Source: a virus
Length of the DNA: 64,000 nt
Virus record (IMG/VR): IMGVR_UViG_3300005613_002762
Location: 1 to 64,000 of that record
Direction: 5' to 3' (one strand)
Under the pieces are notes generated by a model. It ran no database searches, was not told the DNA's origin, and was given only the letters and a program-made list of their open reading frames with translations. The stretch's first letter is position 1. Every line of letters begins with the position of its first letter. Shown in pieces: positions 45,256-64,000 of this stretch. A program made the position numbers and the translations under genes.

Positions 45256-45777
45256 TTATGTTAAACTTTGGGTTGGTGTTGGTGTGTTTGTTGGTGTCGG
45301 TGTAGGTGTTTGACTAAGTTCGGGGTAATTAGTTGGAGTTGGTGTTGGTGTTGGGAATGGAGTCACACAACAATTATAATCTAAGACATAACAATTATCA
45401 TATGGTAAACTATTAGATAAATAACTTTCAACCACATTAATATATAACTTTTCTCGAATTGGTAAGACAAGTGTCCCTGTTTCATTTATAAAAACAAATT
45501 GACCTTCATAACGACCTGGTTTACTTGTGTCTTGAGGTGTAAATCGATAGTAAACATAAAACTCAGGACTTGCGTTTGGATTCATTTCCATTTTCTCAAC
45601 AAAACTTGCTGCTTCGGAATTGATTTTTAAAACTCCCGTTTCTGAATCTATCATTGAAAAAAATATTGATGATGTCTCAATAAAACCCATCATAGATTGA
45701 TAATCAGTTATACCATCTTTTACAACTTGTAATTTTAATAATGGTAAACTTGAATTTTGACCGATTGTAAATTCCAT
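45256..45777 (-). CDS. Fibre-attachment / BppU-N-like adaptor protein with Pro-Thr tail
   Basis: FTIGQNSSLPLLKLQVV...VYYRFTPQDTSKPGRYEGQF...LVLP...LYINV, then (PT)n. Confidence 0.55.
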   Translation of the reverse strand: MEFTIGQNSSLPLLKLQVVKDGITDYQSMMGFIETSSIFFSMIDSETGVLKINSEAASFVEKMEMNPNASPEFYVYYRFTPQDTSKPGRYEGQFVFINETGTLVLPIREKLYINVVESYLSNSLPYDNCYVLDYNCCVTPFPTPTPTPTNYPELSQTPTPTPTNTPTPTQSLT

Positions 45778-45815
45778 CTATACTTTCTTTATAAATACCT
45801 TAGTTGTGATTTTAG

Positions 45816-46856
45816 TTAGGGACAAACACCACCAACACAATTGTCGTTTCCTCCTGTCACAGAAATATAATTATATGGTTGTGTAAAGGCGGCACAGAAA
45901 GTTTGAGATCCATTAAATGGTAAAGTTATTGCAACACTATTACCATTACAATTCACATATATCGAATTAAACACATTATTTTGTGTTTTAGTATACGTAA
46001 AACATTTACAAGGAAATGAAGTTCCACACTCATGGGAATAAATCACTTGACTATAATTACCAAACAATCCACTATACGCACCAACATACACTACTGTATT
46101 TGGTAAGTAAGGTAATCCATTTCTTTTTAAAACTTTAAACCAACCGCCGTTAGTTGCAAAAGAATATGTATTAAAACTTGGTGATGCCCAAAGAGTTTGA
46201 CCAATTGTTAACGCCGACATTACAGGTGTGTATGCGGTTGCATATTGAGCAGTTTGTGAACATGCGTTATTAACAGCACCCGACCCAAATGACACAACCC
46301 ACTCAGTATAACCTGTTGGTTCAGGACCTAAAGTTGTTGATGTTGTTGTTACGGGTATTGATGTGGTTGATGTTGTAGTTGGTGCTATGGTTGATGTGGT
46401 AGTTGTTGGTATTGGAGGAACTGGTGGTGGTATAGGTTGTGATTTACAACAAGGAAAATCTACAACATAACAACTTTGATATTCATAATCATTTATTATA
46501 AAACTATCCGTTACGTTTACAAATATGTTTTGATTTAATGGTAATGTTAAAATTCCTGTTTCATTTCTAAATAAAAATTGACCTTGATATCTACCAACAC
46601 TTTTTGTGTCTTTTGGTGTGAATTGATAATAAACATAGTATTCAGGTTCTAATGTTGGATCAATTTGTTCTTTTTTCATTACACCAGCAGGTCTTGTAGT
46701 AAATTTTGGAATACCTGTTTCAGTATCAACCATAGAAAAAAATATGTCGGTTTCTTCTAAAAACCGCATAGTTCTATCATAATCACTTCGTCCGTCTTTT
46801 ATGACGTTTATCTTTAATACGGGAAGAGTCGCACCTTTTTTAATGAAAAATTCCAT
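45816..46856 (-). CDS. Paralogous BppU-N-like adaptor with Thr-rich linker and Cys-rich C-terminal domain
   Basis: FFIKKGATLPVLKINVI...VYYQFTPKDTKSVGRYQGQF aligns visibly with the 45256 protein; PTTTTSTIAPTTTSTT linker. Confidence 0.55.
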   Translation of the reverse strand: MEFFIKKGATLPVLKINVIKDGRSDYDRTMRFLEETDIFFSMVDTETGIPKFTTRPAGVMKKEQIDPTLEPEYYVYYQFTPKDTKSVGRYQGQFLFRNETGILTLPLNQNIFVNVTDSFIINDYEYQSCYVVDFPCCKSQPIPPPVPPIPTTTTSTIAPTTTSTTSIPVTTTSTTLGPEPTGYTEWVVSFGSGAVNNACSQTAQYATAYTPVMSALTIGQTLWASPSFNTYSFATNGGWFKVLKRNGLPYLPNTVVYVGAYSGLFGNYSQVIYSHECGTSFPCKCFTYTKTQNNVFNSIYVNCNGNSVAITLPFNGSQTFCAAFTQPYNYISVTGGNDNCVGGVCP

Positions 46857-46884
46857 TCAAGTTCTTTTTCAATAAATACTTGAA

Positions 46885-48552
46885 TTAAAATTCTTTTCTT
46901 AAACTACCCTCATAGAATTCGAACCTGTTGTGTTCTGTTGGTGTCATAAGAAGAACACCACTACTAATTCGACCTTTTATTGTTTCTTTATAACAATATG
47001 ACATTAAGGTCTGTTCATATGGATAGTCAAATTTAGTTTCGATATAACATTTGTAATTACCTTCTTTTGATAATATAATTGGCCAGTTAGATAAATATAC
47101 ATCACCTGTTGCGTATGGAATACCTTCATATGATTTTATATTTTTGAACTCTAAACATGGTGAATTTGGATCTTGACCCTGTTTTGGAAGTTCGGGATTC
47201 ATAGGCCAATGTTTTTTTCTAAACTCTTGATCCACATTATACCAAGACCATTGTTTTTCATGACTACCAAAAAACTCCGTAAAATTTAATTTAAGAAAAT
47301 CTAATTCTTCTTTTTTGAATATCTGTAAAACTTTTCTATATAGATTTTTAGTTTTTCGATTAAATCCGTTTTTACACACATCATCGATACCATTATAAAA
47401 AAACATATCATCTTCGAAGAAATAATAATAATCCATATCGGATTCGTTAAAATGTTCTGCAACAAAAACACGTCCGCCAGTTATTCCGATATTATCTTTT
47501 TTAATATGTTCGAACCCATATTGTTCACAAAGTTCCAAGTATCTTGGAGTTGTTGATAAATCCGTTGAGTTATTTAATAAGAATTTCTTTGTTTTAGAAA
47601 TAAAATCTGAATCATATTCTAACATGGAATTGATCAGTGTTTCAAATTGTTTTGGGCTATTGAATGAAATCACATATAGACCAACATCTCCTGACGAAAT
47701 CTTAACTATTTTTTTTGTTTTCCTTAAAGTTTTTAATTCAACGGAATCATTTTTAACATCTTCAAAAAATTTATACATAAGACCATTCGATTCAATTTCA
47801 ACGTAATCTATTATTGTCGGATTTTGATATAAAAGAATTGAAAATAAACTTTCTTCAGTTCCCATTAAACCTTTTTGTAATGTTGATTTAATTAACCCAT
47901 AATAAAGACCATTCATATGTCGAATAAGTTCTTTTGTTCCACCAAAGAATCCACCTCTACAAACTTTATCAACCCTTGTTTCAGTTATCTTATCCATTTG
48001 TTTAATATCAAATCCATGTATTTCACGATCCGCTTGGTATGGGAAACAAACAAATAAAAAGTTATCGGTTAATTTATCTATTTTTGGTAAAACATTGTCG
48101 TGAGTAAAATAACCCATGTGAACCGTATTTGCCAATCCCGCATCAATCCAATAAAGTTTTTCTGAATTAAATTTATCTAAAATAACCGCATCATGTAAAA
48201 GAAACATTTTTGACATAACCAAAGGGTTATACATTTCAAGTTTCGCTTGAGTAGAATCTTTTAACCATCCGGCTAAATTATACCATTTTGGATTGTTTCT
48301 AATCGTTTGTATTTGATAATAAAACTCACCATTTTTAAACCAATCTAAATCTCTTAATACAAATTGAGTGTTAGAGTTATTTCTTTTTGATGAAACAAAA
48401 TCTTGTAGTTCTTTGTCACCAAAAATTATCATATTACAATCAATTTGTAATAGTTGTTCAAACTTATTTAAATAATGATCAAATGATCGAGACCAACCCT
48501 CAGATAAGTTTCCTCGACCAATATCCCATAAACCAGTGACTAACGTAATCAT
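46885..48552 (-). CDS. HtrL/YibB (WlaTC)-like putative glycosyltransferase fused to a GT-A-like domain
   Basis: ITLVTGLWDIGR...RSFDHYLNKF...MSKMFLL...YWIDAG...CRGGFFGG...MGTEESL; second domain LYVISFNS...NIGITGGR...YYFFEDD. Confidence 0.7.
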   Translation of the reverse strand: MITLVTGLWDIGRGNLSEGWSRSFDHYLNKFEQLLQIDCNMIIFGDKELQDFVSSKRNNSNTQFVLRDLDWFKNGEFYYQIQTIRNNPKWYNLAGWLKDSTQAKLEMYNPLVMSKMFLLHDAVILDKFNSEKLYWIDAGLANTVHMGYFTHDNVLPKIDKLTDNFLFVCFPYQADREIHGFDIKQMDKITETRVDKVCRGGFFGGTKELIRHMNGLYYGLIKSTLQKGLMGTEESLFSILLYQNPTIIDYVEIESNGLMYKFFEDVKNDSVELKTLRKTKKIVKISSGDVGLYVISFNSPKQFETLINSMLEYDSDFISKTKKFLLNNSTDLSTTPRYLELCEQYGFEHIKKDNIGITGGRVFVAEHFNESDMDYYYFFEDDMFFYNGIDDVCKNGFNRKTKNLYRKVLQIFKKEELDFLKLNFTEFFGSHEKQWSWYNVDQEFRKKHWPMNPELPKQGQDPNSPCLEFKNIKSYEGIPYATGDVYLSNWPIILSKEGNYKCYIETKFDYPYEQTLMSYCYKETIKGRISSGVLLMTPTEHNRFEFYEGSLRKEF

Positions 48553-48581
48553 AGTTAATTGTTAACAATTTTATTTTGAAA

Positions 48582-49463
48582 TTAAATACCGTTTAATTCC
48601 TCTAATATTTTATAAAAACTTTTTTCTGTCTTGGTTAATTCTTTTAAATCAACGCCAGGTATATTATCGTCTTCATGCCACCAAATATCAAAAAATAATG
48701 GACTAAACAAATCTTTATTGTTGTAATAAATTAAAGACATAATGTTCTCCTCAAGGTATAAAGTATTTTCATTTTCTAAAACCTCATCAATTTGGTTTAA
48801 CATCATTTTACAATAATCCATTACCAATTCTTTTTTACCACCAAAAAAACCACCAATTATGTGATGGTCAAAACAATACTTATCGTAATAGCTTTGAGGT
48901 AAAGTTTTTGACCAATGATTTCTTCTATTTTCTTTTGCACATAACACAATTTTATTATCTGAAGTTTTTATCAGATTATTTAAAAGATTATTATTAAATA
49001 ATTTAGATTCAAAATACTTTTCCCAATACCCCCTTGTTTGATCTAAAAGTCTTGGTGGAATTAAACCACTATGAGAAAGACCAGCATCAAACCAAAAGAT
49101 ATTTGTTGTTGTGTCGTCAATTTCGTTTAAACACCAATTAAATTTTGAATACTGAATTTCATAACATCTATCTTTAATCACATTTGTTTGTGTTGATTTA
49201 ATTTGTGAAATTCTATTGTGAAATTTATTATCACGTAAATTTGAAACTTTAAATGTAATTTGTGATTCTGAAAAATTATTTTCTTTATAAAAAAAGTTTT
49301 GAAGAATACCTAACTCTTCTTGACTTGTATAACACACAAATTGTGCATCGGTCATTTTTAATAAACTTTTAACCGAGTTTAAATAATGTCCTTGTCTACT
49401 ATCTCTTCCACCAAGATCGGTATTGAACAGGTTTGAATAAATTGCGGTAACAATTTTTATCAT
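48582..49463 (-). CDS. Second HtrL/YibB-like putative glycosyltransferase
   Basis: IKIVTAIY...YEIQYSKF...FWFDAGLSH...IIGGFFGG...LEENIM, the same motif order as the neighbour's N-terminal domain. Confidence 0.65.
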   Translation of the reverse strand: MIKIVTAIYSNLFNTDLGGRDSRQGHYLNSVKSLLKMTDAQFVCYTSQEELGILQNFFYKENNFSESQITFKVSNLRDNKFHNRISQIKSTQTNVIKDRCYEIQYSKFNWCLNEIDDTTTNIFWFDAGLSHSGLIPPRLLDQTRGYWEKYFESKLFNNNLLNNLIKTSDNKIVLCAKENRRNHWSKTLPQSYYDKYCFDHHIIGGFFGGKKELVMDYCKMMLNQIDEVLENENTLYLEENIMSLIYYNNKDLFSPLFFDIWWHEDDNIPGVDLKELTKTEKSFYKILEELNGI

Positions 49464-50704
49464 AAATTACCAACAATTCTATCACACCAATCTTTAGATG
49501 TCGAGTGAGGCCAAATAACCCAATACGACGGAATTTCTTTTGTGTGAAACTCTCTCCACACTTTACCAACACCACTTGGATCTGACTTTAATCTCATAAT
49601 CTCATTTGGATCGGCATCTTGTCTAAACAAAGTATTATTATCTTTATCGTGAAAAGCAACCACCCAAAAATCATAATCAGTTTCAGGAACTCGATTTAAA
49701 TCTAAATCAATACAATGTCTAAAAATTGTTGTAAAAGATTCTTTCCATTCTTCTTCAGTTTTAAACTCATATGTATTTGGTGGATATTTTTTATCTTTTG
49801 TTTCTTGTTGTATACCTCGAGTTTCGAATAATATTCCAGCATATTTTTCATAGTCACGAACCGTTCTTTTTGTTCCGAACCATTCAGAATAATCACCATC
49901 ATAAGTTTCACCATCAACACCAAGTAATTGTCTATTCTTTTTATGACATGCGGTATTTTTTAAATACCAATCCTTATCATCATCCCATTGCTTAACTCGA
50001 CCTTTTCTTGTGTATTCATGCCAAATTAAAACTTTATGTGGGTGAAACAAATCATAACCATGTGTATATGCTCTTACCGTAATTGAAATTTCTTCCCCAT
50101 GAAAATAAAATTCAGGATCGTGTTGAACTTCTTTTGAAAACTCACCCAAAGTAAAACAATAATGTGCCGAATAAAATCTTGCGGGAATTGGTTCGGTCAT
50201 TTCTTTCCATCCTGGTATAACTTCAGGTAAAAAGAAAACAACACCTTCGGGTGTAAATCGATCAAATGTCATACGCCAAGGTTCCGTAACTCTTCCTTCA
50301 GGATCATTTTCAGGATCAAATGAAGAAACATAACCTGTCAATAATGGTTTTTTATGACCTTTCTTTTGGAGTTGTTTAATCATTTTGATCATTTCTTTAT
50401 CCCAATTTTTTTCGAATCTCATATGAGAATCTATTTGAAGGGTATATTTTTCTCCATCATATTGTTGTTGTGTCAAATGTCTTGCCCAACACACACCTTT
50501 TGATTCCTTATAATCTATGTTAATAATTTTAAATCTTGGGTCATTTTCATACTCTGATAAATCATCAAAACCATCTTCAGGATGAAATTGTCTGGCAATT
50601 GATAAAACCAAATTTTCGGGGTTTTTTGCCATTTCCAACATGTTTTTAATTGTTGGGATAAGTTGGGGGTCTCGATAAGACGCTATTTGAACAAATATTT
50701 TCAT
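49460..50704 (-). CDS. GT60-like polypeptide/hydroxyproline GlcNAc transferase
   Basis: KIFVQIASYRDPQL..TI, SKGVCWAR, YTLQIDSHMRF..NWD, HDPEFYFHGEEISITVRAYTHGYDLFHP...WHEY. Confidence 0.85.
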   Translation of the reverse strand: MKIFVQIASYRDPQLIPTIKNMLEMAKNPENLVLSIARQFHPEDGFDDLSEYENDPRFKIINIDYKESKGVCWARHLTQQQYDGEKYTLQIDSHMRFEKNWDKEMIKMIKQLQKKGHKKPLLTGYVSSFDPENDPEGRVTEPWRMTFDRFTPEGVVFFLPEVIPGWKEMTEPIPARFYSAHYCFTLGEFSKEVQHDPEFYFHGEEISITVRAYTHGYDLFHPHKVLIWHEYTRKGRVKQWDDDKDWYLKNTACHKKNRQLLGVDGETYDGDYSEWFGTKRTVRDYEKYAGILFETRGIQQETKDKKYPPNTYEFKTEEEWKESFTTIFRHCIDLDLNRVPETDYDFWVVAFHDKDNNTLFRQDADPNEIMRLKSDPSGVGKVWREFHTKEIPSYWVIWPHSTSKDWCDRIVGNL

Positions 50705-50782
50705 AATGAAAAAATAAATAAATCAAGTAAAGTGTAAATTGTTTTGATCGATTTAAACACTATGATGATCCATAAATAAATG

Positions 50783-51721: not shown

Positions 51722-51754
51722 GATACAATAATAACTTATTCACAAATAAATTGA

Positions 51755-55718: not shown

Positions 55719-55977
55719 TATAACCGTATATGTAATTTACCAAATCGTTTATTGTGTCAAATGTGTTATTATCAATACTAACCTCATTAAGTTTAAAAAA
55801 AATAATGTTTTCGTCTAATTCAATAGATAATTCATAAGGGTTATATGAAAAATAACCTCTAGTTCCTTCTTCATCTACATAAGTGAAAGTAAGTTCTCTT
55901 GGAACATCTAAAAATGAATTTCCTTCAGAACCATTTTTTTTTACTAATGTATTTTTTATTTTTTCTAAATATATCAT
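55696..55977 (-). CDS. Hypothetical protein
   Basis: 93-aa acidic ORF packed between the paralogs. Confidence 0.6.
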   Translation of the reverse strand: MIYLEKIKNTLVKKNGSEGNSFLDVPRELTFTYVDEEGTRGYFSYNPYELSIELDENIIFFKLNEVSIDNNTFDTINDLVNYIYGYNDSDNRI

Positions 55978-55978
55978 A

Positions 55979-56488: not shown

Positions 56489-56491
56489 ATC

Positions 56492-59400
56492 TTATATTTC
56501 TACCCAACTATTATCAGGACTAAAATAAATTATTTCATTTGTTCCGTCTATACTATAACCAATAATTCTAATAACATCACCACTTGATGATGGTGCGGTA
56601 GTTGTCACTCCACCTGCAGTTGTCGATACGTAAATTATATCACCTGTATTTGTTGTAAATCCTGAATTTCTAATATATCCTCTAACCAACATACCGTCCG
56701 AAGCCGAGGTACCAAGAGCAAATGCTAACATCCCTGTCGATGATGATGTGGCGTTTGCATCTGCAGATGACCAAGAACCCAAGGAGTCCAAGTAATATAA
56801 ATTACCGGCAGTCAATGAACCACCGCCAAAAGTTACAATATCACCATATCCTTCTACAGATGTTGTTAATTCTGTAGTTGGGTTATGTATAAACGAAGTG
56901 TCTCCAGAAACTATTAATTTTCTTGATGGTGTATCAGTTCCAATACCAACATTATCTGTAGAGGCATCAACATAAAATAAATTACTATCAGAACCCCCTT
57001 TTATTTGAAAGTCTGATGTTGTAGTATTGGAATTATTAAATATTGCAATACCTTCGTCCGCAAAAACTGAGTAATTATCACCAGCACCTGCGGCACTAAC
57101 TCTTAAACCATAATTCTCTTTTGCGTCATTTTGTACTAAAATGTTAACACCGTATTTTATTGAGGATAAAGGGTTACTTGTTCCGTAAACATGAAAATAA
57201 CCTCCTGTCTGTGTGTCTCCACCGCCACTATCAACGTTAAAATTGTCAATTTTTATACCATAAGAACTTCCAACATTTCCCGGCAATACCGATTCAAATC
57301 CGATATTAAAGTCACTACCATCAGAAACCGCAGTAGAAATTCCCCAATGATTTTCAGATACACCACCAATCGTAAACTCAGCACCTATTTTATCACCTAA
57401 ATTGTCATCTGAGTTTGCAAAAACATCACCCCTTATTCCGGTTTGTCTTGATGAACCTTTAGTCGTATTATTTAATATTTGAAGTCCGACATTATCACCA
57501 AAAGAGGTATTATTACCAACCAATATGTCAATACCGACATTTATTATTGTTGCGTCATAAGTAGTAACTTTTTGACCTGTTAATTCAATTATCGTTGATT
57601 GATCACCAATCGATTCTATGTTTATGTTTGAATATCCTGTAGTTTGATTAGTTTGCTGAGAACTAACATATAGAGCGTATGTACCACTACCAACAGTATC
57701 TACAATGTTTTGATATCCTGTCACATCAAGTCTATTGGTCGCCGCACCAAAAACTAAATTAGTTTCAGCGACAATACCACCTAAACCATCTGATGTTAAC
57801 ACTTGATTGTTTGATCCCCCTACGGTTGGTGAGACTCCGCTAGTTCCATCAGTACCGCTAGTACCGTTTGTACCACTACTTCCTGAGGTTCCATTTGTAC
57901 CTGACGTACCATTAGTCCCACTTGATCCCGACGTGCCGTTTGTTCCTGAAGTTCCGTCTGTACCGCTAGACCCCGAAGTACCATTAGTCCCTGATGTTCC
58001 ATTAGTTCCGCTAGACCCCGAAGTACCATCAGTCCCAGATGTTCCATTAGTACCACTTGTCCCATTTGTACCTGATGAACCGCTAGTACCATTTGTTCCG
58101 CTACTACCACTAGTTCCATTAGTTCCTGAAGAACCTGAGGTTCCGTCCGTTCCGCTAGTTCCATTTGTACCATCAGTCCCGCTTGAACCATTTGTTCCGT
58201 CTGTCCCACTAGTCCCATCAGTTCCTGAAGTTCCATCCGTACCACTTGAGCCCGATGTTCCATCCGTACCGCTAGAACCATTTGTTCCATTTGTACCTGA
58301 GGTACCATCTGTTCCTGAACTCCCACTAGTACCATTAGTTCCATTTGTTCCATCGGTACCGCTAGTTCCATCTGTACCTGAAGATCCATTCGTACCGTCA
58401 GTTCCTGAACTACCATTAGTACCATCTGTTCCGCTAGTACCGTCTGTCCCCGAAGATCCGTTAGTTCCATCAGTCCCACTTGTTCCATTAGTCCCCGAAG
58501 ATCCGTTTGTACCTGAAGTACCATTAATACCACTAGTACCGTCAGTTCCACTTGAGCCTGATGTACCATTGGTCCCTGAACTTCCATTAGTACCATCAGT
58601 TCCGCTAGTACCATCTGTACCACTTGAGCCATTTGTTCCGTCTGTTCCACTAGTACCATCAGTACCCGAAGTCCCATCAGTTCCGCTAGATCCATTTGTA
58701 CCCGATGTTCCGTCCGTTCCTGAACTACCACTTGAACCATTAGTTCCGTCTGTTCCTGAAGTACCATCAGTACCCGAAGATCCATTTGTTCCGTCTGTTC
58801 CTGAAGTTCCATCTGTACCAGATGTTCCATCAGTACCATTAGTTCCTGAAGTTCCGTTAGTTCCACTTGTTCCATTAGATCCACTAGTACCGCTTGTTCC
58901 ATCTGTTCCTGAACTACCATTAGTTCCGTCTGTTCCGCTAGTCCCGTTTGTACCGCTACTACCACTAGATCCATTTGTTCCACTAGTACCATTAGTCCCT
59001 GATGATCCGTCAGTTCCGCTAGTTCCATCACTACCATTTGTTCCACTTGTTCCTGAACTACCACTCGTCCCTGAACTACCACTTGTTCCTGATGTTCCGT
59101 TTGTTCCTGAACTCCCATCAGTCCCTGATGTTCCATTCGTCCCACTTGAACCTGAAGTTCCGCTACTTCCTGATGACCCATCGGTTCCATTGGTTCCGCT
59201 ACTTCCTGACGACCCATCGGTTCCATTTGTCCCTGATGATCCATTAGTTCCTGACGATCCATTAGTTCCTGATGATCCATTAGTTCCTGATGATCCATTA
59301 GTTCCTGATGACCCACTTGTTCCTGATGACCCACTCGACCCGTTAGTTCCGTTAGTTCCACTCGACCCGTTAGTTCCGTTTGTACCTGATGTTCCATTTG

Positions 59401-59710
59401 TACCACTGGTTCCATTAGTTCCTGACGATCCATTTGTACCACTAGTCCCGTTAGTTCCTGATGTTCCATCAAAACCGTTAGTTCCGCTAGTTCCATTCGT
59501 CCCATCAGTTCCGCTAGTTCCATTAGTCCCTGACGTTCCACTAGGACCTGTCGATCCACTTAATATTGCTTGTAAATCACTCAACGGAGCAAAATAGGAA
59601 GATCCTTGAGGGCTTTGTGATGTATCTCCTGTAACAACGACATGAAAAATGTCATTTAAGGTTACTGCGGATACTTTTTGTCGGTCTGTTAATCTATTGT
59701 ATGTCGGCAT
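56492..59710 (-). CDS. Fibre protein with a long Gly-X-Y (Ser/Thr/Asn/Asp) collagen-like shaft, a beta-solenoid-like middle and a C-terminal cap
   Basis: About 190 GXY triplets, then NNQVLTSDG.G...ETNL.F, NVGIGTDTPSRKL.V.G and GDIIYVSTTAGGVTTTAPS.SGDVIRIIGY, all common phage fibre motifs. Confidence 0.8.
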   Translation of the reverse strand: MPTYNRLTDRQKVSAVTLNDIFHVVVTGDTSQSPQGSSYFAPLSDLQAILSGSTGPSGTSGTNGTSGTDGTNGTSGTNGFDGTSGTNGTSGTNGSSGTNGTSGTNGTSGTNGTNGSSGTNGTNGSSGSSGTSGSSGTNGSSGTNGSSGTNGSSGTNGSSGTNGTDGSSGSSGTNGTDGSSGSSGTSGSSGTNGTSGTDGSSGTNGTSGTSGSSGTSGSSGTSGTNGSDGTSGTDGSSGTNGTSGTNGSSGSSGTNGTSGTDGTNGSSGTDGTSGTSGSNGTSGTNGTSGTNGTDGTSGTDGTSGTDGTNGSSGTDGTSGTDGTNGSSGSSGTDGTSGTNGSSGTDGTSGTDGTSGTDGTNGSSGTDGTSGTDGTNGSSGTNGTSGSSGTDGTSGINGTSGTNGSSGTNGTSGTDGTNGSSGTDGTSGTDGTNGSSGTDGTNGSSGTDGTSGTDGTNGTNGTSGSSGTDGTSGTNGTNGSSGTDGTSGSSGTDGTSGTDGTSGTDGTNGSSGTDGTNGTSGTDGTSGSSGTNGTSGSSGTNGTSGSSGTNGTSGTNGTSGTDGTSGSSGTNGTSGTNGTSGSSGTDGTSGTNGTSGSSGTNGTSGTNGTSGSSGTNGTSGTDGTSGVSPTVGGSNNQVLTSDGLGGIVAETNLVFGAATNRLDVTGYQNIVDTVGSGTYALYVSSQQTNQTTGYSNINIESIGDQSTIIELTGQKVTTYDATIINVGIDILVGNNTSFGDNVGLQILNNTTKGSSRQTGIRGDVFANSDDNLGDKIGAEFTIGGVSENHWGISTAVSDGSDFNIGFESVLPGNVGSSYGIKIDNFNVDSGGGDTQTGGYFHVYGTSNPLSSIKYGVNILVQNDAKENYGLRVSAAGAGDNYSVFADEGIAIFNNSNTTTSDFQIKGGSDSNLFYVDASTDNVGIGTDTPSRKLIVSGDTSFIHNPTTELTTSVEGYGDIVTFGGGSLTAGNLYYLDSLGSWSSADANATSSSTGMLAFALGTSASDGMLVRGYIRNSGFTTNTGDIIYVSTTAGGVTTTAPSSSGDVIRIIGYSIDGTNEIIYFSPDNSWVEI
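57836..59557 (-). repeat. About 1.7-kb degenerate 9-bp-unit coding repeat (GTS/GTN/GTD/GSS)
   Basis: Continuous Gly-X-Y frame for about 574 aa with varied synonymous codons. Confidence 0.95.
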
Positions 59711-59725
59711 ATCATTAATAAATAT

Positions 59726-60022
59726 TTAAGGACCTTGAAATAAAAATATATCTGCGTCTTGAAATAAAAATATTTCGAAGTTTTCAAATTCTTTTCCATA
59801 AATCTCTTCACAAGAAAGAAGATATATTTTTTCACAATTGTTTGAATCGACCACTTTTAAAATAATTGGTGTTGACTGATCTAATGGTGAAGGAACATCA
59901 AACACATATGGAGACGAAGTTATTGCTGAAACAAAAAAACAATAAGTTATTGTTTGATCACAAACATATATATCGAATGGTGATGTTCCACTTAAAGAAT
60001 TTATTTGAATTGTATTTGGCAT
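59726..60022 (-). CDS. Small putative structural protein
   Basis: IQINSLSGTSPFDIYVCD...CFFV...ILKVVDSNNC; TATTTAT motif upstream; co-oriented with the fibre gene. Confidence 0.6.
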   Translation of the reverse strand: MPNTIQINSLSGTSPFDIYVCDQTITYCFFVSAITSSPYVFDVPSPLDQSTPIILKVVDSNNCEKIYLLSCEEIYGKEFENFEIFLFQDADIFLFQGP

Positions 60023-60070
60023 ATTATATAAATATAAACCCTTAAATAAGTATTCATCTATTTATAGTAT

Positions 60071-60628
60071 ATGTCGAAAAATAAACTGAATAAAATGAAA
60101 CTTGATCTTTATTTAAAAGAATTAAATCTTTTAGAATCAGAGAAACAATATGTAGATGAGTTCACATCACACTATAAACCTCAGTTTATGGAAGACGCAA
60201 TTAAATTAGGTTATGTGTCACCAATTATTACAGGAGAAACAAATTCTTCTTGTGGTATAAAAAAAGACAAAGCATTTGAGGTAACGAATGAAGAGAAAAA
60301 AACTATTAAAACAATTTTCAGATCTATAGCCAAGGAATGTCATCCTGATAAAACAAAAAGTCCAATAAGGGTTAAATGGTATGAAGAAGCCCAAATTGCA
60401 TATGAAAAAAATGATCTTTTAACATTATATAAGATTGCAAAAAAAATCAATATTGAAATAGATTTTGAAATAAATGGGACTATATTACTACAAAAGACAA
60501 TAGAAGAAAAGAAAAAAGAATTACAATCGGTATCAGGTTCTTTTTTGTGGTTATGGGTTCATTCTGAAACTCAAGAACAAAAAGACGAAATAATAAAACA
60601 ATTTATAAACCAAACAAAACAACAGTGA
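60071..60628 (+). CDS. J-domain (DnaJ-like) co-chaperone
   Basis: IKTIFRSIAKECHPDK...WYEEAQIAYE (HPD motif, helices II-III). Confidence 0.8.
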   Translation: MSKNKLNKMKLDLYLKELNLLESEKQYVDEFTSHYKPQFMEDAIKLGYVSPIITGETNSSCGIKKDKAFEVTNEEKKTIKTIFRSIAKECHPDKTKSPIRVKWYEEAQIAYEKNDLLTLYKIAKKINIEIDFEINGTILLQKTIEEKKKELQSVSGSFLWLWVHSETQEQKDEIIKQFINQTKQQ

Positions 60629-61827
60629 TGAAAAATTTAAAAATTGGAATTACATTAGGTTTACAATCAAACACAGAATCAATATGGACAAACGGAATGA
60701 AACAAAATGTTTTAATGTTTGTTCATTTATTAAAACAATCCAAAAACAATTATGAAGTTTTTATATTAAACACATTTGATGTAGATTTTTCAGAAAAAAG
60801 ACCTTCTTATTTGGATGGTATTGATATCCATAACTTTAAAGAAAAATTTATGGACATGGATCTTATCGTTATGATGGGAGCTCAAGTTTATGATGAAGAC
60901 ATTAAGAAATTTAAAGAAGATAAAAATAAAAGATTTATCGGTTATAAATGTGGAAACAATTATGTTATACACATGGAAAACGTAATGTTTAAAGAAAATA
61001 CCAAAAAATATTTTGAGTATGAAACAACGTTTGACGAATTATGGTATATTCCACAACAAGACGAAACAAACAAAGGATTCTTTTCAACATTATATAGAAC
61101 AAATGCATTTATTGTTCCATTCATTTGGCATGATAAATTTTTAAAAGAGGCCGTTATTGGTATTGAAAAAGGATTTAAAGATGGTCGTTATAAAAAAGGT
61201 TATAAATATAATCCCGAAAAAGAAAAAAAGGTTTTGGGTATTATGGAACCAAATATTAATATTGTTAAATATGGTTTAATCCCAACCATGATTGCCGAAG
61301 AATCTTTTAGAACTGAAACCGGAAAAAACCATATTGATAAGTTAATGATTACAAATGGTGAAAAATTAAAAACTAATCACGAGTTTTTATCTATTATTAA
61401 AACTTTTGATCTTTATAAAGATGGTAAAATAACTGCAGAGTCTCGTTATCAAACGGCATTTGTTTTAACTCAATATTTTGATGTTCTAATATCTCATCAG
61501 ATTCTAAATCCATTAAATTATCTGTATTTGGATGCTGCGTATTTAGGTTATCCTGTATTACATAATGCAACTCTATGTAAAGATTTAGGTTATTATTATG
61601 ATAATAGTGATACTAAACAAGGTGCCGAAATGTTAAATTATATTTTAACAGAACATGATAAAAATATTACAGAGTATCATGAAAAAAATAATAAAGTGTT
61701 AGAAAGATATTATGCCGATGATGAGACTTTAGTAGAAACTTATGACAAACTTATTTATAATTTATTTAATGGTGGAAATAAGGATTTGATTTATAACCCA
61801 AATACAAATAGATACGATAATCTATAA
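60625..61827 (+). CDS. DUF2827-like putative GT-B glycosyltransferase
   Basis: LKIGIT...SIWTNGMKQN, YKCGNNY, FDELWYIPQ, VPFIW, IMEPNINIVK...P, DVLISHQ..NPLNYLYLD..Y.GYPVLHN.....DLGYYY. Confidence 0.75.
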   Translation: MMKNLKIGITLGLQSNTESIWTNGMKQNVLMFVHLLKQSKNNYEVFILNTFDVDFSEKRPSYLDGIDIHNFKEKFMDMDLIVMMGAQVYDEDIKKFKEDKNKRFIGYKCGNNYVIHMENVMFKENTKKYFEYETTFDELWYIPQQDETNKGFFSTLYRTNAFIVPFIWHDKFLKEAVIGIEKGFKDGRYKKGYKYNPEKEKKVLGIMEPNINIVKYGLIPTMIAEESFRTETGKNHIDKLMITNGEKLKTNHEFLSIIKTFDLYKDGKITAESRYQTAFVLTQYFDVLISHQILNPLNYLYLDAAYLGYPVLHNATLCKDLGYYYDNSDTKQGAEMLNYILTEHDKNITEYHEKNNKVLERYYADDETLVETYDKLIYNLFNGGNKDLIYNPNTNRYDNL

Positions 61828-61844
61828 CTTAACTTACTACTAAT

Positions 61845-61872
61845 AAAAAAGGGGTTCCGAAGAACCCCTTTT
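61845..61872. terminator. Bidirectional intrinsic terminator with a C(UUCG)G tetraloop on the minus strand
   Basis: AAAAGGGGTTC-CGAA-GAACCCCTTTT between convergent genes. Confidence 0.9.
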
Positions 61873-61893
61873 CTTTTTGGTTAAAACCAAAGA

Positions 61894-63999
61894 TTAAGCG
61901 TAAACACCGTAAGCAGTTACTTTACCACCATCAGCTGGAGTATAAGTAAAGGTTACAGTTGCACCAGTCATGTTGTAATCTACACCAGCTTCTTGAAGAA
62001 GACCGTTATAGTAGATTGCTTCAGAGTTAGTTCTTACATCAGATGCCAAAGTGAATTCTTTGTTAGTTCCATTAACTAAACCGCTAACAGAAACTCTCTT
62101 GAAGTAAGTGTTCTCGAAATCATTTGTAATGTTTTCAAGTTCAGTTACAACTTCTGAGAAAGAGTCGATAGCTGTAAGATCTGTGTTTGAGATCAAGTTA
62201 GCAACTTCAGTAGACAATGCCTCTTCTAACGATTCTTCAGCGGCCTCAGCTCTTGAAATTTCAGAAGATAATTGTGACATTAATCCTTCCTCTACTTCAC
62301 CGATAAATACTTCAAGTGAGTTATCTTTAGCAAGTCTTGCAGACTCCTCATTAGAGATAGCACTATTAATAGAAGTTTTAGCGTCATTTAATGATGTTTC
62401 TAATGAACTATCACCAACAACTCTTGAAGAAGCTTCAGTAGAAATAGCGGCATTTGCATCAGTTCTGTTAGTTGCAATTACGCTCTCTAATGAACTATCA
62501 CCAACAACTCTTGAAGAAGCTTCAGCAGAGATAGCTGTGTTTGCGTCAGTTTTATTAGTAGCGATTACACTTGCTAATGAACCGTCAGCAGATTCCATAG
62601 CATCCTCAACCTCATCGATTGTTAAACCAATAGAAGTTACGGCAGACAATAATGCGTTATCGTTTTCTAAGTCAATAGCATTAACGAAAGAAACGATTTC
62701 GGCAAATTGATCTAAATCAACATCAGAACCATCAAGGATAGCATCGATACGTTCTTTTTCATCTTCGATTGCGTTAGCTAATGAAGTATCTGCCGATTGA
62801 CGGTCAGTAATTTCTGTGCTGATTTTTCCGTTAATAGACTCCTTAGCTTCATTAATAGAAGATGCCAATGAAGTGTCACCAGAAATACGGTTAGAAATTT
62901 CAACTGAAATTCTGTCGTCGATAGATTCATCTGCAGATGTGTGGATTGAGCAACACTCAGAGATTTCAATAGATAACTCATTATCTTTTGAGTTCATTGC
63001 AACCAAGTTAGAACTGATAACAGATTCTAATGAATCATCAGCATTGTTCATTGCAACCAAGTTAGAACTGATAACAGTTTCTAATGAATCATCAGCATTG
63101 TTCATTGCCACCAAGTTAGAACTAATAACAGTTTCTAATGAAGTGTCGGCAGTGTTCATTGCAGTCAAGTTAGCACCGATAACAGTTTCTAATGAAGTGT
63201 CCACGGCAAGACGTTCATCTTCTTCTCTAGATACGCGAGCGTCGATAGAAGCGTTAGCCGCGATGATTTCAGCGTCTACATAATCCTCCAAAGAGTTGTC
63301 TGCGGCCAAGCGAGTTGACTCTTCAGCAGTTAATCGAGTGTCAATTGAACCTTCAGCAGATACATGGTGAGCATGTTCTGTAGAGATTTCAATAGAAATC
63401 AATGTTGCCAATGAAGTGTCAGCAGTTGCACGAGCGGCCTCCTCAGTAGAAACACGAGAAGTTAAAGAAGTGTCAGCGGCTTCACGAGCAGCAACTTCAG
63501 TAGATACAGCAGATTCGCGGTTAACAACTTCAAGAGAAATGTCAGAAGACAATACTCCTTCAGCAGCAAGAGCACGAGTTTCTTCAGCGTCTACATCGGC
63601 AGCACGGTTAACGATTTCAGAAGAAAGGTTAGCGGCAATTGATGCCTCAGCGGCTGTTGCACGAGATACTTCAGCAGAAGTTGCGGTTGATGCGTTAGCA
63701 GCTAAAGTTGTGATTGCGTTGTTGATGTCACCATCAGCAGATTGGAATGCACCTACGATTTCAGTCAATGAATCAAGAGCGGCTGGATCTGTGTTAGAGA
63801 TCACGAAGTCAATCTTTGTGTTCAATGAAGTATCGGCAGCGGCACGGGCAGTTGCTTCGTCAGCTAAGTCACTTGCCAATGAACCTTCAGCTGCGACAGC
63901 ACGAGACTCTTCAGCGTCAACATCAGCAGTACGAGCAGTTACTTCAGCCGCCAATGCGTTTGCGATAGACGTTTCAGAAGATTGTGCACGAGACTCTTC
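61894..63999 (-). CDS. Long coiled-coil fibre protein, 5'-truncated by the window edge
   Basis: The frame is open to the right edge (EESRAQSSETSIANALAAEV...), so the track's TTG start is an artefact. E..RA.AAE/D.SL repeats, three (A/L)D(S/Q)(L/F).E(I/V)V fibre 'knee' motifs, and a C-terminal G.VNGTN..FTL...IYYNGLLQ..GVDY...G.TVTF...P domain. Confidence 0.8.
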   Translation of the reverse strand, partial: EESRAQSSETSIANALAAEVTARTADVDAEESRAVAAEGSLASDLADEATARAAADTSLNTKIDFVISNTDPAALDSLTEIVGAFQSADGDINNAITTLAANASTATSAEVSRATAAEASIAANLSSEIVNRAADVDAEETRALAAEGVLSSDISLEVVNRESAVSTEVAAREAADTSLTSRVSTEEAARATADTSLATLISIEISTEHAHHVSAEGSIDTRLTAEESTRLAADNSLEDYVDAEIIAANASIDARVSREEDERLAVDTSLETVIGANLTAMNTADTSLETVISSNLVAMNNADDSLETVISSNLVAMNNADDSLESVISSNLVAMNSKDNELSIEISECCSIHTSADESIDDRISVEISNRISGDTSLASSINEAKESINGKISTEITDRQSADTSLANAIEDEKERIDAILDGSDVDLDQFAEIVSFVNAIDLENDNALLSAVTSIGLTIDEVEDAMESADGSLASVIATNKTDANTAISAEASSRVVGDSSLESVIATNRTDANAAISTEASSRVVGDSSLETSLNDAKTSINSAISNEESARLAKDNSLEVFIGEVEEGLMSQLSSEISRAEAAEESLEEALSTEVANLISNTDLTAIDSFSEVVTELENITNDFENTYFKRVSVSGLVNGTNKEFTLASDVRTNSEAIYYNGLLQEAGVDYNMTGATVTFTYTPADGGKVTAYGVYA
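62400..62530 (-). repeat. 87-bp-period (29-aa) direct repeat in the fibre gene
   Basis: CTAATGAACTATCACCAACAACTCTTGAAGAAGCTTCAG occurs twice; protein SL.SVIATN.TDAN.AIS.EASSRVVGDS x2. Confidence 0.85.
62990..63200 (-). repeat. 54-bp (18-aa) tandem repeat, about 4 copies
   Basis: SLETVIGANLTAMNTADT / SLETVISSNLVAMNNADD x2 / SLESVISSNLVAMNSKDN, with near-identical DNA. Confidence 0.9.
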
Positions 64000-64000
64000 A

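Follow-up and report, generated by a model that had tools for sequence, protein, structure and literature searches.

Protein-type glycosyltransferases beside likely acceptor fibres in an accessory island of a large T4-like lake phage

Three enzyme-fibre modules in one island

The pairings of enzyme and fibre in the genome of a large, uncultured lake phage recur in many phages and in some bacteria, so this phage probably coats its own fibres with sugar. The window that we analysed comprises the first 64,000 nucleotides of the 149-kb record IMGVR_UViG_3300005613_002762, ~51% complete by CheckV. Positions 45256-64000 form an accessory island; the phage is large and T4-like, and its host is probably a member of the Bacteroidota. 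Genes of the island encode eight domains that resemble glycosyltransferases (GTs), an FkbM methyltransferase domain and a J-protein with an HPD motif, interleaved with Pro/Thr-tract proteins, a practically proline-free collagen-like fibre of 192 triplets and a coiled-coil fibre (Table 1). Comparative genomics strongly supports the view that GTs of protein-modifying type here share a locus with their likely acceptor fibres. We consider it likely that they form three cytoplasmic protein O-glycosylation modules, each lying beside the fibrous phage protein that it would most probably modify: (A) GT60, with a variable glycan-tailoring cassette and an HtrL-like GT of two domains, by the Pro/Thr (PT)-tract proteins; (B) GT9 and a GT4-TibC-FkbM fusion, by a (Gly-Thr/Ser-Ser/Asn/Asp)n fibre; and (C) the J-protein and DUF2827, by the coiled-coil fibre.

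A sequence-only reading of this DNA had proposed an island glycosylating virion proteins by way of one multi-step glycan. Its central element, enzymes and likely acceptor fibres in one locus, has strong support from comparative genomics, but the evidence favours three separate enzyme-fibre modules over a single glycan. All island genes lie where that reading had placed them, including the proteins with Ser/Thr/Asn and Pro-Thr tracts, and its count of eight GT-like domains is upheld by Pfam/NCBIfam profile searches, on which the family assignments are based, by hhalign and by AF2 models. Its statement that the TibC/Aah and GT60 families act on proteins holds for every characterised TibC-family heptosyltransferase (BAHT; PMC4358343) and every characterised GT60 enzyme (PMC6939170).

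Our direct results are family memberships, conserved catalytic residues, recurrent enzyme-fibre pairings and a lack of membrane segments, none being predicted in any GT of the island. We infer the role of the fibres as acceptors, the sugars used, the order of steps and a benefit that may lie in fibre stability, protease resistance, adhesion or shielding; modification would take place before or during virion assembly. Each pairing is seen again in dozens of dereplicated IMG/VR phage contigs, although the locus counts are not fully independent because related loci share ancestry. Adjacency within a hypervariable accessory region could also partly reflect shared insertion hot-spots.

Table 1. Features of the island and of the tail sheath (positions in the window)
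Feature	Position	Strand	Description
Pro/Thr/Ser tract in tail sheath (aa 283-326 of 1115 aa)	33590-33721	-	Sheath by PHROG, 4.5e-54
PT173	45256-45777	-	Ig-like N-domain, then C-terminal Pro-Thr tail (tract 45259-45363); candidate acceptor of module A
PT346	45816-46856	-	Paralogous N-domain, Thr/Ser/Pro tract (46311-46448), Cys-rich C-domain; candidate acceptor of module A
HtrL555	46885-48552	-	Pfam HtrL_YibB 6e-17; two GT-A-like domains: HtrL-like (47722-48552) and a second with invariant E-D-D motif (46888-47688)
p293	48582-49463	-	Single-domain HtrL-like putative GT
GT60 (PF11397), soluble	49460-50704	-	Pfam 2.6e-72; phrog_24687 4e-163
GT9_312	50783-51721	-	Pfam GT9 1e-15; heptosyltransferase-like, LGD motif, Cys-rich C-terminus
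GT4-TibC-FkbM fusion	51755-54688	+	GT4 (52364-52828); TibC/Aah-type O-heptosyltransferase (52985-54007); FkbM methyltransferase (54146-54529)
Three paralogous ~170-aa proteins	54689-55204, 55197-55718, 55979-56488	-	Downstream of collagen-like gene
93-aa protein	55696-55977	-	Downstream of collagen-like gene
Collagen-like fibre, 1072 aa	56492-59710	-	Pfam Collagen 3.8e-83; triplets at 57830-59557; candidate acceptor of module B
p98	59726-60022	-	Small protein with a four-Cys domain; collagen gene lies just downstream
J185	60071-60628	+	J-domain-like, HPD motif; stop overlaps DUF2827 gene start
DUF2827-family putative GT	60625-61827	+	Pfam 3.6e-97
fib840	61894-64416 (window end 64000)	-	840-aa Ala/Ser/Glu/Thr-rich repeat fibre; candidate acceptor of module C

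Module A: GT60, HtrL and Pro/Thr-rich proteins

The GT60 motifs YRD, DSH and GEE are invariant in 49 homologues, including that of Xanthomonas phage XacN1, and 68 of 78 phage loci have both GT60 and HtrL genes. Between them relatives carry 0-9 interchangeable transferases, methyl-, carbamoyl- and pyruvyl-transferases, i.e. families of glycan building and tailoring; here the sole gene in this variable slot is p293. Pfam gave no match for p293, which is however homologous to the HtrL-like domain family of HtrL555 (hhalign 98.1%, E 7e-14) and 27% identical to XacN1 ORF332. The AF2 model of HtrL555 (pLDDT 89.5) has two GT-A-like domains, and its top Foldseek matches are the two-domain glycosyltransferases LH3, Mimivirus R699, LARGE1, K4CP and COLGALT1 (E ~1e-10).

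The gene next to HtrL on its far side, here PT346, is a conserved neighbour, and in 24 of 39 dereplicated phage loci it is PTS-rich, vs 6 of 130 ORFs genome-wide. The module is also found in cellular bacteria, with GT60/HtrL adjoining mucin-like proteins in several phyla; PTS-rich genes are commoner within two genes of GT60 in bacterial genomes (23/271 vs 12/639, odds ratio 4.8, p 1e-5). The sequence-only reading had called the bracketing genes adaptors, but family alignment shows that PT173 and PT346 have an Ig-like N-domain in common, whose best structural matches (AF2 model and VIA search) are phage baseplate BppU-type N-domains (Z 7.7-8.2) and not head-tail adaptors. This match is borderline, with Z ~8 against ~7 for generic Ig folds, and is the basis on which the two proteins would be placed in the virion.

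XacN1 has GT60, p293-like, HtrL-like and GT9 genes, the same GT60/HtrL core as our phage; in it, the gene for a 3313-aa PT-linker protein adjoins baseplate-wedge genes. Its virions show Schiff-positive (glycoprotein) bands, which are not assigned to genes (PMC5852040).

We propose that the soluble GT60 would initiate O-glycosylation at Thr and Ser residues in the Pro/Thr-rich tracts of PT173, of PT346 and of other proteins with PT tracts, using, by analogy with its family, alpha-GlcNAc from UDP-GlcNAc. The two-domain HtrL-like enzyme and p293 may then lengthen the glycan, and in relatives the swappable cassette could yield lineage-specific glycans.

Module B: a TibC fusion and a collagen-like fibre

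The TibC domain of the fusion exceeds the NCBI equivalog cut-off (TIGR04414, 283.3 bits vs 200) and aligns with PDB 4rap over TibC residues 52-388 (E 1.5e-64). It keeps Asp110, Lys230 and all four iron-finger cysteines (Cys339/342/358/370); in TibC itself the D110A mutant is catalytically inactive, Lys230 binds the sugar and the four Cys form an iron finger (PMC4358343). The methyltransferase domain noted from sequence is confirmed as FkbM (fkbM_fam, 52 bits vs cut-off 37.7). GT9_312 is divergently paired with the fusion and co-travels with it in many loci; it matches WaaF (1psw, 1e-7), falls below cut-off on all NCBIfam RfaF/RfaC/TibC models and is 24% identical to the TibC domain.

The 192 triplets of the neighbouring fibre run unbroken as Gly-X-Y; X is Thr or Ser, Y is Ser, Asn or Asp, and a single Pro occurs. 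A C-terminal domain of 445 aa comes after them, and the C-terminal part of the protein matches a tail-fibre PHROG (2.5e-6). Of 34 lineages left after dereplication at 90%, 26 have a Gly-X-Y protein within 10 kb of the TibC homologue; two of the other eight are truncated at the TibC gene. Nearly all these collagens are Gly-Thr/Ser-Ser/Asn/Asp, with Thr/Ser at 74-100% of X positions and essentially no Pro, and this composition holds over TibC identities of 44-95%; it was found in none of 38 GT60 loci without TibC. The block of ~170-aa paralogues and 93-aa protein also lies beside TibC and collagen in loci L088, L093, L115 and L127; these proteins have no Pfam or PHROG match, and ESM Atlas gave only unnamed viral clusters. 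In relatives, long PT-linker proteins have the p98 domain as their N-terminus (alignment of 21 sequences, and synteny).

The TibC-type domain would place heptose, or a related sugar, on the Ser/Thr residues of the collagen-like fibre, which number in the hundreds; GT9_312 and the fused GT4 may lengthen the glycan and the fused FkbM domain may add methyl. Counting against this reading, known TibC substrates are beta-helical autotransporter repeats rather than collagen-like ones. A complete ADP-heptose pathway was not found in the 149-kb record, nor were SIS or PfkB genes; its only heptose-pathway-like gene encodes an adenylyl/cytidylyl-transferase below cut-off for RfaE domain II and TagD.

Module C: a J-protein, DUF2827 and a coiled-coil fibre

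The Pfam DnaJ match of J185 is weak (1.5e-4, 22.3 bits, under the cut-off of 27.8), but the HPD motif is present in 50 of 50 homologues. DUF2827 was found in 49 viral loci. Of 25 DUF2827 lineages, 18 have the J-protein directly beside DUF2827, 22 have it somewhere in the locus and 19 have the coiled-coil fibre; neither protein occurs in any of 75 control loci. The fib840 gene, whose product reads from its composition as a probable coiled coil, is convergent with the DUF2827 gene. Downstream of it lies a conserved partner gene (genome 64947-65732) with matches to PHROGs of virion-structural and tail-fibre proteins. Bacterial DUF2827 genes adjoin trimeric autotransporter adhesins, and their products have been proposed as cytoplasmic glycosyltransferases (bioRxiv 10.64898/2026.01.22.700529). 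By our proposal DUF2827 would modify the coiled-coil fibre, with the J-protein bringing host Hsp70 to hold or fold it.

A second cluster and possible other targets for the enzymes

The sequence-only reading found no donor-synthesis genes and looked to the host or elsewhere in the genome. Such genes are indeed elsewhere in the genome; it missed a second glycosylation cluster just outside the window (genome 73-88 kb, ~10-24 kb past it), with nucleotide-sugar genes and eight more GT-like domains. Among its members are GT11, GT25 and GT2, together with an epimerase, an NDP-sugar dehydrogenase and a TagD/RfaE-like transferase. The genome also encodes an 818-aa protein in which SprB repeats are combined with a type IX secretion sorting domain.

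This second cluster resembles 'cell wall synthesis and modification' gene sets of cyanophages S-SCSM2R and P-SSM2 (PMC12801897), and host envelope remodelling is the usual reading of similar GT clusters in T4-like cyanophages. The main alternative is that the enzymes remodel LPS core, O-antigen or capsule during infection, e.g. blocking superinfection or keeping progeny off debris, with the fibres as unrelated cargo. HtrL/YibB, GT9, GT4, GT25 and GT11 are families of LPS/polysaccharide loci, the first four typical of LPS-core synthesis; LPS-core transferases are also soluble, so the missing membrane segments are compatible with this role. We nevertheless judge it unlikely: the TibC-type enzyme, GT60 and DUF2827, whose identification is the best of the set, come from families with characterised or proposed protein targets, no Wzx/Wzy, polyprenyl-phosphate transferase or ligase family is among the cassette's most frequent Pfam families or the matches listed for the rest of the genome (up to 25 families per list), and envelope remodelling leaves unexplained why TibC tracks one collagen composition and DUF2827 one fibre family.

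Somewhat less probable still is that enzymes and fibres are neighbours without an enzyme-substrate relation. Both could be mobile cargo of a hypervariable region; or the GT-like proteins could be non-catalytic assembly factors for the fibres, or could modify other phage proteins, cargo of type IX secretion or adhesins on the host surface. The island does occupy a variable slot between conserved genes (the PolB side and the o788/o295 side) with differing content in relatives, the J-protein suggests a folding role, and the SprB-repeat protein shows an interest in the host surface. Yet the pairings are kept with wholly different flanking genes and enzyme identity down to 44-53% (L136-L147), GT60/HtrL stand by mucin-like proteins in cellular genomes too, and the conserved catalytic residues speak against purely structural roles.

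We know of no DNA glycosyltransferase family among those matched in the island. Hypermodification of phage DNA against restriction (glycosylated hydroxymethyl-pyrimidines) is very improbable, since, although DNA is the classical target of phage glycosyltransferases, DNA glycans of diverse kinds have been described (work cited in PMC12619734) and half the genome is absent from the record, a search of the 149 kb gave no thymidylate-synthase-like hydroxymethylase and the enzyme-fibre associations would go unexplained.

Returning to glycosylation of the phage's own proteins, the Pro/Thr/Ser tract of the tail sheath, which lies outside the island, is a possible further acceptor.

Three enzyme-fibre modules in one island

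The island (45256-64000) holds three enzyme modules side by side, each adjoining candidate acceptor proteins: module A, with a GT60 enzyme, a variable cassette and the 555-aa enzyme HtrL555, lies beside the Pro/Thr (PT) tract proteins PT173 and PT346; module B, with the 312-aa GT9_312 and a 977-aa GT4-TibC-FkbM fusion, beside a 1072-aa collagen-like fibre; and module C, with the J-protein J185 and a DUF2827 protein, beside the 840-aa fibre fib840. Every gene listed here by the sequence-only reading exists, and its count of about eight glycosyltransferase-like (GT-like) domains proved right by Pfam, profile-profile comparison and an AlphaFold model. Pfam recognizes the HtrL555 N-domain (HtrL_YibB, 6e-17), the GT60 enzyme (PF11397, 2.6e-72), GT9_312 (1e-15), the three parts of the fusion (GT4, a GT9-type domain and an FkbM methyltransferase) and the DUF2827 protein (3.6e-97). 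The 293-aa enzyme p293, which has no Pfam match, is homologous to an HtrL-like domain by profile-profile comparison (98.1%, E 7e-14). No membrane segments are predicted in any island enzyme.

The extra GT-A domain of the sequence-only reading is borne out by the model of HtrL555 (pLDDT 89.5), which has two GT-A-like domains; its best structural matches (E ~1e-10) are human LH3, Mimivirus R699, LARGE1, the chondroitin polymerase K4CP and COLGALT1, all of them two-domain transferases. HtrL555 scores 62.5 bits on HtrL/YibB (PF09612; gathering score 24.1) and 73 bits on the NCBIfam equivalog TIGR02192 (cut-off 264.9); judged by sequence, it is a distant member of the family and not an orthologue of E. 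coli YibB. PDB sequence searches with the GT60 enzyme and with family profiles of HtrL555 and the PT346 N-domain returned nothing useful.

Coordinates of the features discussed, in window numbering or, where prefixed G000:C1 or marked as genome, in that of the whole record
Feature	Position	Strand	Remark
Tail sheath, 1115 aa, unusually long	window 31220-34567	-	sheath homology in the last ~280 aa alone
Pro/Thr/Ser tract of the tail sheath, aa 283-326	window 33590-33721	-	
TATTTAT examples	window 34602-34609, 40861-40868, 45790-45797, 60027-60034, 60059-60066		
HtrL555	window 46885-48552		
p293	window 48582-49463		
GT4-TibC-FkbM fusion, 977 aa	window 51755-54688	+	
Three paralogous ~170-aa Ser/Thr/Asn-rich proteins and a 93-aa protein	window 54689-56488	-	between collagen-like gene and TibC fusion
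Collagen-like fibre, 1072 aa	window 56492-59710	-	
p98, four-Cys domain	window 59726-60022		upstream of collagen gene
fib840	window 61894-64416	-	extends past the window
o788, 788-aa ORF	genome 67316-69682		
Second glycosylation cluster	G000:C1:73266-87925	+	L001, L002
818-aa ORF: SprB repeats, PKD-like domain, CHU_C type IX secretion sorting domain	G000:C1:139174-141630	-	L295

A TibC-type enzyme paired with proline-free collagen

Residues 411-749 of the fusion score 283.3 bits on the NCBI equivalog TIGR04414 (cut-off 200) and match PDB 4rap (E 1.5e-64), aligning to TibC residues 52-388. Activity of TibC needs Asp110, Lys230, four iron-coordinating Cys and a hydrophobic pair at the thumb tip; the D110A mutant is catalytically inactive and K230A cannot bind sugar (PMC4358343). 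The phage domain keeps Asp110 (LGD motif) and Lys230 (QAKYW motif), all four iron-finger Cys (339, 342, 358 and 370, aligned as C-x-G-C, W-C-P and F-E-C) and the hydrophobic pair at the tip of the beta-hairpin thumb. As in the TibC-TibA and Aah-AIDA-I pairs of E. coli (PDB 4RAP/4RB4; PMC4358343), a soluble, predicted cytoplasmic enzyme is encoded alongside a Ser/Thr-rich repetitive surface protein. Unlike TibC, the phage domain shares its polypeptide with a GT4 and an FkbM methyltransferase and has a second GT9 as partner, and whereas the TibC/Aah partner is a beta-helical autotransporter, the neighbour here is a proline-free collagen-like fibre. We found no autotransporter gene near the TibC-type fusion; its recurrent neighbour is a Gly-Thr/Ser-Ser/Asn/Asp collagen-like protein. 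By sequence the domain thus belongs to the bacterial autotransporter heptosyltransferases, a family marked by an ADP-heptose donor and a dodecameric ring, with a presumably different substrate. The divergently transcribed GT9_312 is a distant paralogue of the TibC domain (24% identical, with the LGD motif in common) and falls below cut-off both on LPS heptosyltransferase models and on the TibC model.

The collagen-like fibre (Pfam Collagen, PF01391, 3.8e-83) has 192 uninterrupted Gly-X-Y triplets at aa 52-627, where X is Thr (142) or Ser (46) and Y is Ser (99), Asn (55) or Asp (37); against the Pro/Hyp-rich X and Y positions of collagen, it has one Pro in 384. In the 445 aa at its C-terminus there is a weak match to a tail-fibre PHROG. 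With the collagen rise of ~0.29 nm per residue, the repeat would span roughly 165 nm.

Scanning with the TibC domain gave at least 122 viral stretches, the best 80 of which fall into 34 lineages at 90% identity. Within these best 80, 26 of the 34 lineages encode, no farther than 10 kb from the TibC gene, a protein with an unbroken run of 10 or more Gly-X-Y triplets, and two of the eight collagen-negative lineages end at the TibC gene itself. Nearly all of the linked collagens in the best 80 have 74-100% Thr/Ser at X, Ser/Asn/Asp at Y and essentially no Pro, and they extend up to 881 triplets (3087 aa); ordinary phage-type collagen (X = Ala/Pro, Y = Gln/Thr/Lys) accounts for four proteins only. 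This composition is stable, in the same 80 loci, over TibC identities from 95% to ~44% and with unrelated flanks. The association also appears from the side of module A, since among 47 GT60 lineages Gly-Thr/Ser collagen is present in 3/9 with TibC and 0/38 without (Fisher p 0.005).

Repeat length ranges from 28 to 881 triplets in close relatives (L086-L130, L166), so that fibre length appears to evolve fast; a phage whose DUF2827 is 96% identical has 143 triplets. The four-gene block of ~170-aa paralogues and 93-aa protein, to which neither a family nor a fold could be assigned, accompanies TibC and collagen in L088, L093, L115 and L127 as well. The three paralogues have no Pfam or PHROG family, and the ESM Atlas returned unnamed viral clusters only for the 171-aa member; p98, o788 and fib840 likewise have no PHROG or Pfam family.

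Bacillus anthracis BclA, whose repeats are Gly-Pro-Thr, the Mimivirus fibrils and the PBCV-1 capsid carry O-glycans added by dedicated enzymes of the same genome, and some invertebrate collagens carry glycosylated Thr. The phage resembles these systems in its surface fibres with Thr-rich Gly-X-Y repeats or fibrils and differs in enzyme families; we know of no TibC-type enzyme that serves any of the three. By analogy with those invertebrate collagens, sugars may stabilise a proline-free triple helix.

GT60, HtrL and the PT-tract proteins

The GT60 gene scores 244.7 bits on PF11397 (gathering score 21), and its YRD, DSH and GEE motifs, which we take to be the catalytic motifs of the family, are invariant in 49 sequences. 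An IMG/VR scan with the protein gave 78 loci (47 lineages at 95% identity), 68 of which have both GT60 and an HtrL-like gene. The common gene order is: a PT-rich or collagen-like protein, often beginning with the four-Cys p98 domain; GT60; zero to nine variable genes; a two-domain HtrL-like gene; a PT346 family member; and PolB. The neighbour beyond HtrL is rich in Pro/Thr/Ser (PTS-rich) in 24/39 lineages, and the one upstream of GT60 is PTS-rich or collagen-like in 19/47, against a background of 86/739 genes in GT60 loci and 6/130 ORFs in this genome, four of these six in or beside the island.

The slot between GT60 and HtrL holds 131 ORFs of 60 families across these loci. By Pfam they include FkbM and other methyltransferases, GT2, GT34, DUF273, GT10, GT25 and GT7 transferases, carbamoyltransferases, pyruvyltransferases and one GDP-mannose dehydratase. 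To judge from these families, the slot is a glycan-tailoring cassette, and it is unlike between close relatives.

A 125-aa N-domain is common to PT173 and PT346, and behind it come Pro/Thr or Thr/Ser tracts. The N-domain has no Pfam hit and is modelled as an Ig-like sandwich, for which the top three phage fold matches are BppU-type baseplate N-domains of phages 80alpha and TP901-1 (6v8i Z 8.2, 4v96 Z 8.1, 3uh8 Z 7.7), a slight margin over generic Ig folds (Z ~7); the ESM Atlas lead (0.92) is BppU_N-type (PF10651) too. From these matches, PT173 and PT346, the adaptors of the sequence-only reading, are probably fibre- or baseplate-associated proteins rather than head-tail adaptors, with the caution that the BppU-type matches barely exceed generic Ig domains.

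Further PT tracts are found in the tail sheath (aa 283-326), in a 518-aa and a 788-aa ORF just past the window, and in a 259-aa ORF at 104.7 kb; that of the 788-aa ORF (o788) is shorter and stays under the PTS/collagen flag. Given the tract in the sheath, a core virion protein may be an acceptor too. In relatives (L011, L017, L020, L025, L030, L033, L039, L047, L071) the p98 domain is fused at the N-terminus of PT-linker proteins of 475-1618 aa, and it may be a shared anchoring module.

Module A in a cultivable phage and in cellular bacteria

The Xanthomonas jumbo phage XacN1 (AP018399) has the same module A core: ORF334 is GT60 (46% identity), ORF332 is p293-like, ORF330 is HtrL555 (40% identity, full-length) and ORF328 is a GT9. 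Beside this core and after baseplate-wedge genes lies ORF325, of 3313 aa with PT linkers. The XacN1 cassette contains a carbamoyltransferase, unlike that of our phage, and the XacN1 region examined showed neither a TibC-collagen nor a DUF2827 module. XacN1 virions have at least two Schiff-positive bands, not assigned to proteins (PMC5852040, where PBCV-1 is also cited), which we take as a hint of virion glycosylation for module A.

A scan of one genome per prokaryotic species yielded 303 GT60 relatives. In 27 of 75 bacterial loci an HtrL-like gene lies at most two genes from GT60, and PTS-rich genes are enriched near GT60 (23/271 near vs 12/639 farther; odds ratio 4.8, p 1e-5). Mucin-like proteins adjoin GT60 in the isolate Jiulongibacter sediminis (L232) and on long high-G+C contigs of Gemmatimonadaceae and Lewinellaceae. 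We note some features of these cellular neighbours: (i) in L232, L266 (Arcticibacterium), L237 and L242 (Gemmatimonadaceae/Gemmatimonas) the neighbour of GT60/HtrL is a short mucin-like Pro/Thr/Ser protein; (ii) the Bacteroidota versions open with a conserved RRLA-x-x-ELFLGSS motif, possibly a twin-arginine signal; (iii) in the Gemmatimonadaceae/Gemmatimonas versions a PqqD-like domain seems, by eye, to come first.

The phage enzyme, which is soluble, belongs to the same Pfam family, with the conserved motifs, as the protist polypeptide alpha-GlcNAc-transferases (Skp1 Gnt1 and the Trypanosoma cruzi enzyme; PMC6939170), and the Thr-rich tracts nearby recall the mucin-type acceptors of the trypanosome enzyme. 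Its acceptor context is an association, that of PT- or Thr-rich flanking proteins in phages and bacteria. Unlike the protist enzymes, GT60 members from phages and bacteria almost always come with a two-domain HtrL-like transferase, and in contrast to the protist system no prolyl hydroxylase was noticed in the phage's region.

DUF2827, a J-protein and the right-hand fibre

The DUF2827 protein scores 325.9 bits on PF10933 (threshold 25), and its neighbour J185 scores 22.3 bits on the J-domain PF00226 (gathering score 27.8), with the HPD tripeptide in all 50 of 50 homologues. Among the 49 loci (25 lineages) found by scanning viral records for DUF2827, a J-protein stands directly beside it in 18/25 lineages and somewhere in the locus in 22/25, and a fib840 homologue is present in 19/25; neither the J-protein nor the fib840 homologue occurs in any of 75 TibC loci without DUF2827. 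A tblastn search of 50,697 isolated or deposited phage records for DUF2827 gave no match. The Ala/Ser/Glu/Thr-rich fib840 is read, from its composition, as a putative coiled coil, and the conserved partner encoded downstream of it hits PHROGs for virion structure and tail fibres.

According to a 2026 preprint (bioRxiv 10.64898/2026.01.22.700529), the DUF2827 proteins of bacteria are cytoplasmic and GT-like in structure, and their genes consistently adjoin those of trimeric autotransporter adhesins. The phage arrangement is alike in having a predicted cytoplasmic glycosyltransferase encoded beside a long fibrous protein, and it differs in that the partner is a fibre of another family and a J-domain protein is almost always co-encoded.

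A second cluster and the sugar donors

Outside the window lies a second glycosylation cluster with a GT4-like transferase, a two-domain GT2 protein, a small GT2, two GT25, a GT11 and a further GT2; counted by domain they amount to eight, which brings the record to about 16 GT-like domains. An FkbM methyltransferase belongs to the cluster as well, and NAD synthase and PhoH are embedded in it. The sequence-only reading had donors coming from the host or elsewhere in the genome; some sugar-nucleotide genes do lie in the same genome at 73-88 kb, so the supply need not be wholly external. The NDP-sugar dehydrogenase is over its cut-off. An epimerase/reductase is ambiguous, below cut-off for both GDP-fucose synthase and ADP-heptose epimerase, and a 148-aa adenylyl/cytidylyl-transferase, the one hint of an ADP-heptose donor, best matches RfaE domain II (74.6 bits vs cut-off 181.5), then TagD, also below cut-off. 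A homologue of this transferase directly follows the TibC genes in the distant TibC group L131-L140. The SIS_2 isomerase and PfkB kinase families were not found in the 149 kb of the record. No TATTTAT upstream motif (see below) occurs between 70.6 and 88.6 kb, so the second cluster may be one long operon.

Proposed mechanism and its alternatives

Since the enzymes are predicted soluble and the best-identified families act directly on cytoplasmic proteins, we think that each module glycosylates its adjoining fibre protein stepwise in the infected cell, ahead of or during virion assembly. In module A, GT60 would start a glycan on Thr/Ser of the PT tracts, and the HtrL-like enzymes and the cassette would lengthen and tailor it. 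In module B, the TibC-type domain would put heptose or a related sugar on repeat Ser/Thr, with GT9 and GT4 extending the glycan and FkbM methylating it. In module C, DUF2827 would modify the coiled-coil fibre, the J-protein recruiting host Hsp70 as a helper. The proposal of the sequence-only reading that the phage glycosylates its own fibres is thereby supported in part, most strongly in its pairing of enzymes and candidate acceptor fibres in one locus. The co-variation that it had proposed to check among related phages is seen for all three modules: TibC with collagen (26/34 lineages, from the best 80 of at least 122 stretches), DUF2827 with the fibre (19/25), and GT60 and HtrL with a PTS-rich neighbour beyond HtrL (24/39).

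The main rival is that these enzymes remodel the host envelope, because HtrL, GT9, GT4, GT25 and GT11 are LPS or polysaccharide families. The second cluster resembles the 'cell wall synthesis and modification' clusters of T4-like cyanophages (GT2, GT11, GT25, epimerase, TagD-like transferase), which have been read as host-surface or DNA modification, with no fibre link proposed for those clusters (PMC12801897). Envelope remodelling fits this second cluster better than it fits the island, where it leaves the specific enzyme-fibre pairings unexplained. That the enzymes and fibres are adjacent with no functional link is unlikely, as the pairings survive changed flanks and recur in cellular bacteria. 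DNA hypermodification by the glycosyltransferases finds no support, there being no thymidylate-synthase-like PF00303 in 149 kb; with the record ~51% complete, this absence, like those of SIS_2 and PfkB, is weak evidence.

Fibre glycosylation, our preferred reading, can be taken further in a joint form that we advance tentatively, rating it slightly below an even chance. Large aquatic phages would build a genuine fibre glycocalyx through three independent cytoplasmic protein O-glycosylation systems. The TibC-type enzyme would hyper-glycosylate the proline-free collagen, its helix held by sugars and not by hydroxyproline. The GT60-started, mucin-type glycan, with a variable cassette like those of O-antigen loci, would yield glycan 'serotypes' under diversifying selection, and the GT60/HtrL-plus-mucin cassette would serve cellular bacteria of several phyla as a protein glycosylation system so far unrecognised.

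Most phage glycosyltransferases are annotated by default as DNA or LPS modifiers, and to our knowledge experimental documentation of virion glycosylation by phage enzymes is almost confined to mycobacteriophages. There, according to Freeman et al. 2023 as summarised in PMC12619734, phage-encoded glycosyltransferases target the phage's own structural proteins, as proposed here, and the Pro/Thr tract at the extreme C-terminus of PT173 recalls the C-terminal glycosylation sites described. Our enzyme families appear unlike those of mycobacteriophages, and the targets there are capsid and tail-tube subunits, in contrast to the fibres and linkers proposed as acceptors here; our phage has three predicted modules and a hypervariable tailoring cassette. 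Literature searches on TibC-type enzymes in phages and on phage glycoproteomics of this kind gave nothing relevant, and one on DUF2827 gave a bacterial preprint only; core glycosyltransferases of the 'moraphages' (large freshwater Bacteroidota phages) are mentioned only generically.

The locus offers three separately testable enzyme-substrate pairs with catalytic residues defined for each, and XacN1 is a cultivable model already showing glycoprotein staining. If fibre glycosylation is true, new classes of substrate would be added for TibC-type, GT60 and DUF2827 enzymes, the stability of proline-free Gly-Thr-Ser 'collagens' of up to ~880 triplets would be accounted for, and virion glycans would be a variable surface trait bearing on adsorption, persistence in water and recognition by hosts or grazers.

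Genome and host

The source record is 149,190 bp long (IMG/VR class linear), the window being its first 64 kb; CheckV puts its completeness at 51%, so the true genome may approach 290 kb. The phage is a T4-like myovirus, with tail sheath, baseplate wedge and family-B DNA polymerase in the window and Gp23-type capsid, T4-type portal, prohead protease and terminase genes beyond it; G+C is ~31%. In cellular genomes its GT60 gene is closest to homologues from Saprospiraceae, Cytophagaceae and other Bacteroidota, which together with the SprB/CHU_C protein points to a Bacteroidota host. That 818-aa protein looks like a phage product for export through the secretion system of such a host.

Of the 130 ORFs, 46 have TATTTAT in sense orientation in the 50 nt upstream (~2% expected), mostly 12-22 nt ahead of the start codon. 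It is likely a promoter element serving structural and replication genes alike. We rejected it as a late-gene marker, since helicase genes have it upstream just as structural genes do, and it is thus no proof of late co-expression of enzymes and fibres. Other genes in the record's second half specify a ClpB-type AAA+ chaperone, an FKBP prolyl isomerase and a protein with an IMP-dehydrogenase/GMP-reductase-type domain; with the J-protein, these suggest heavy investment in protein folding.
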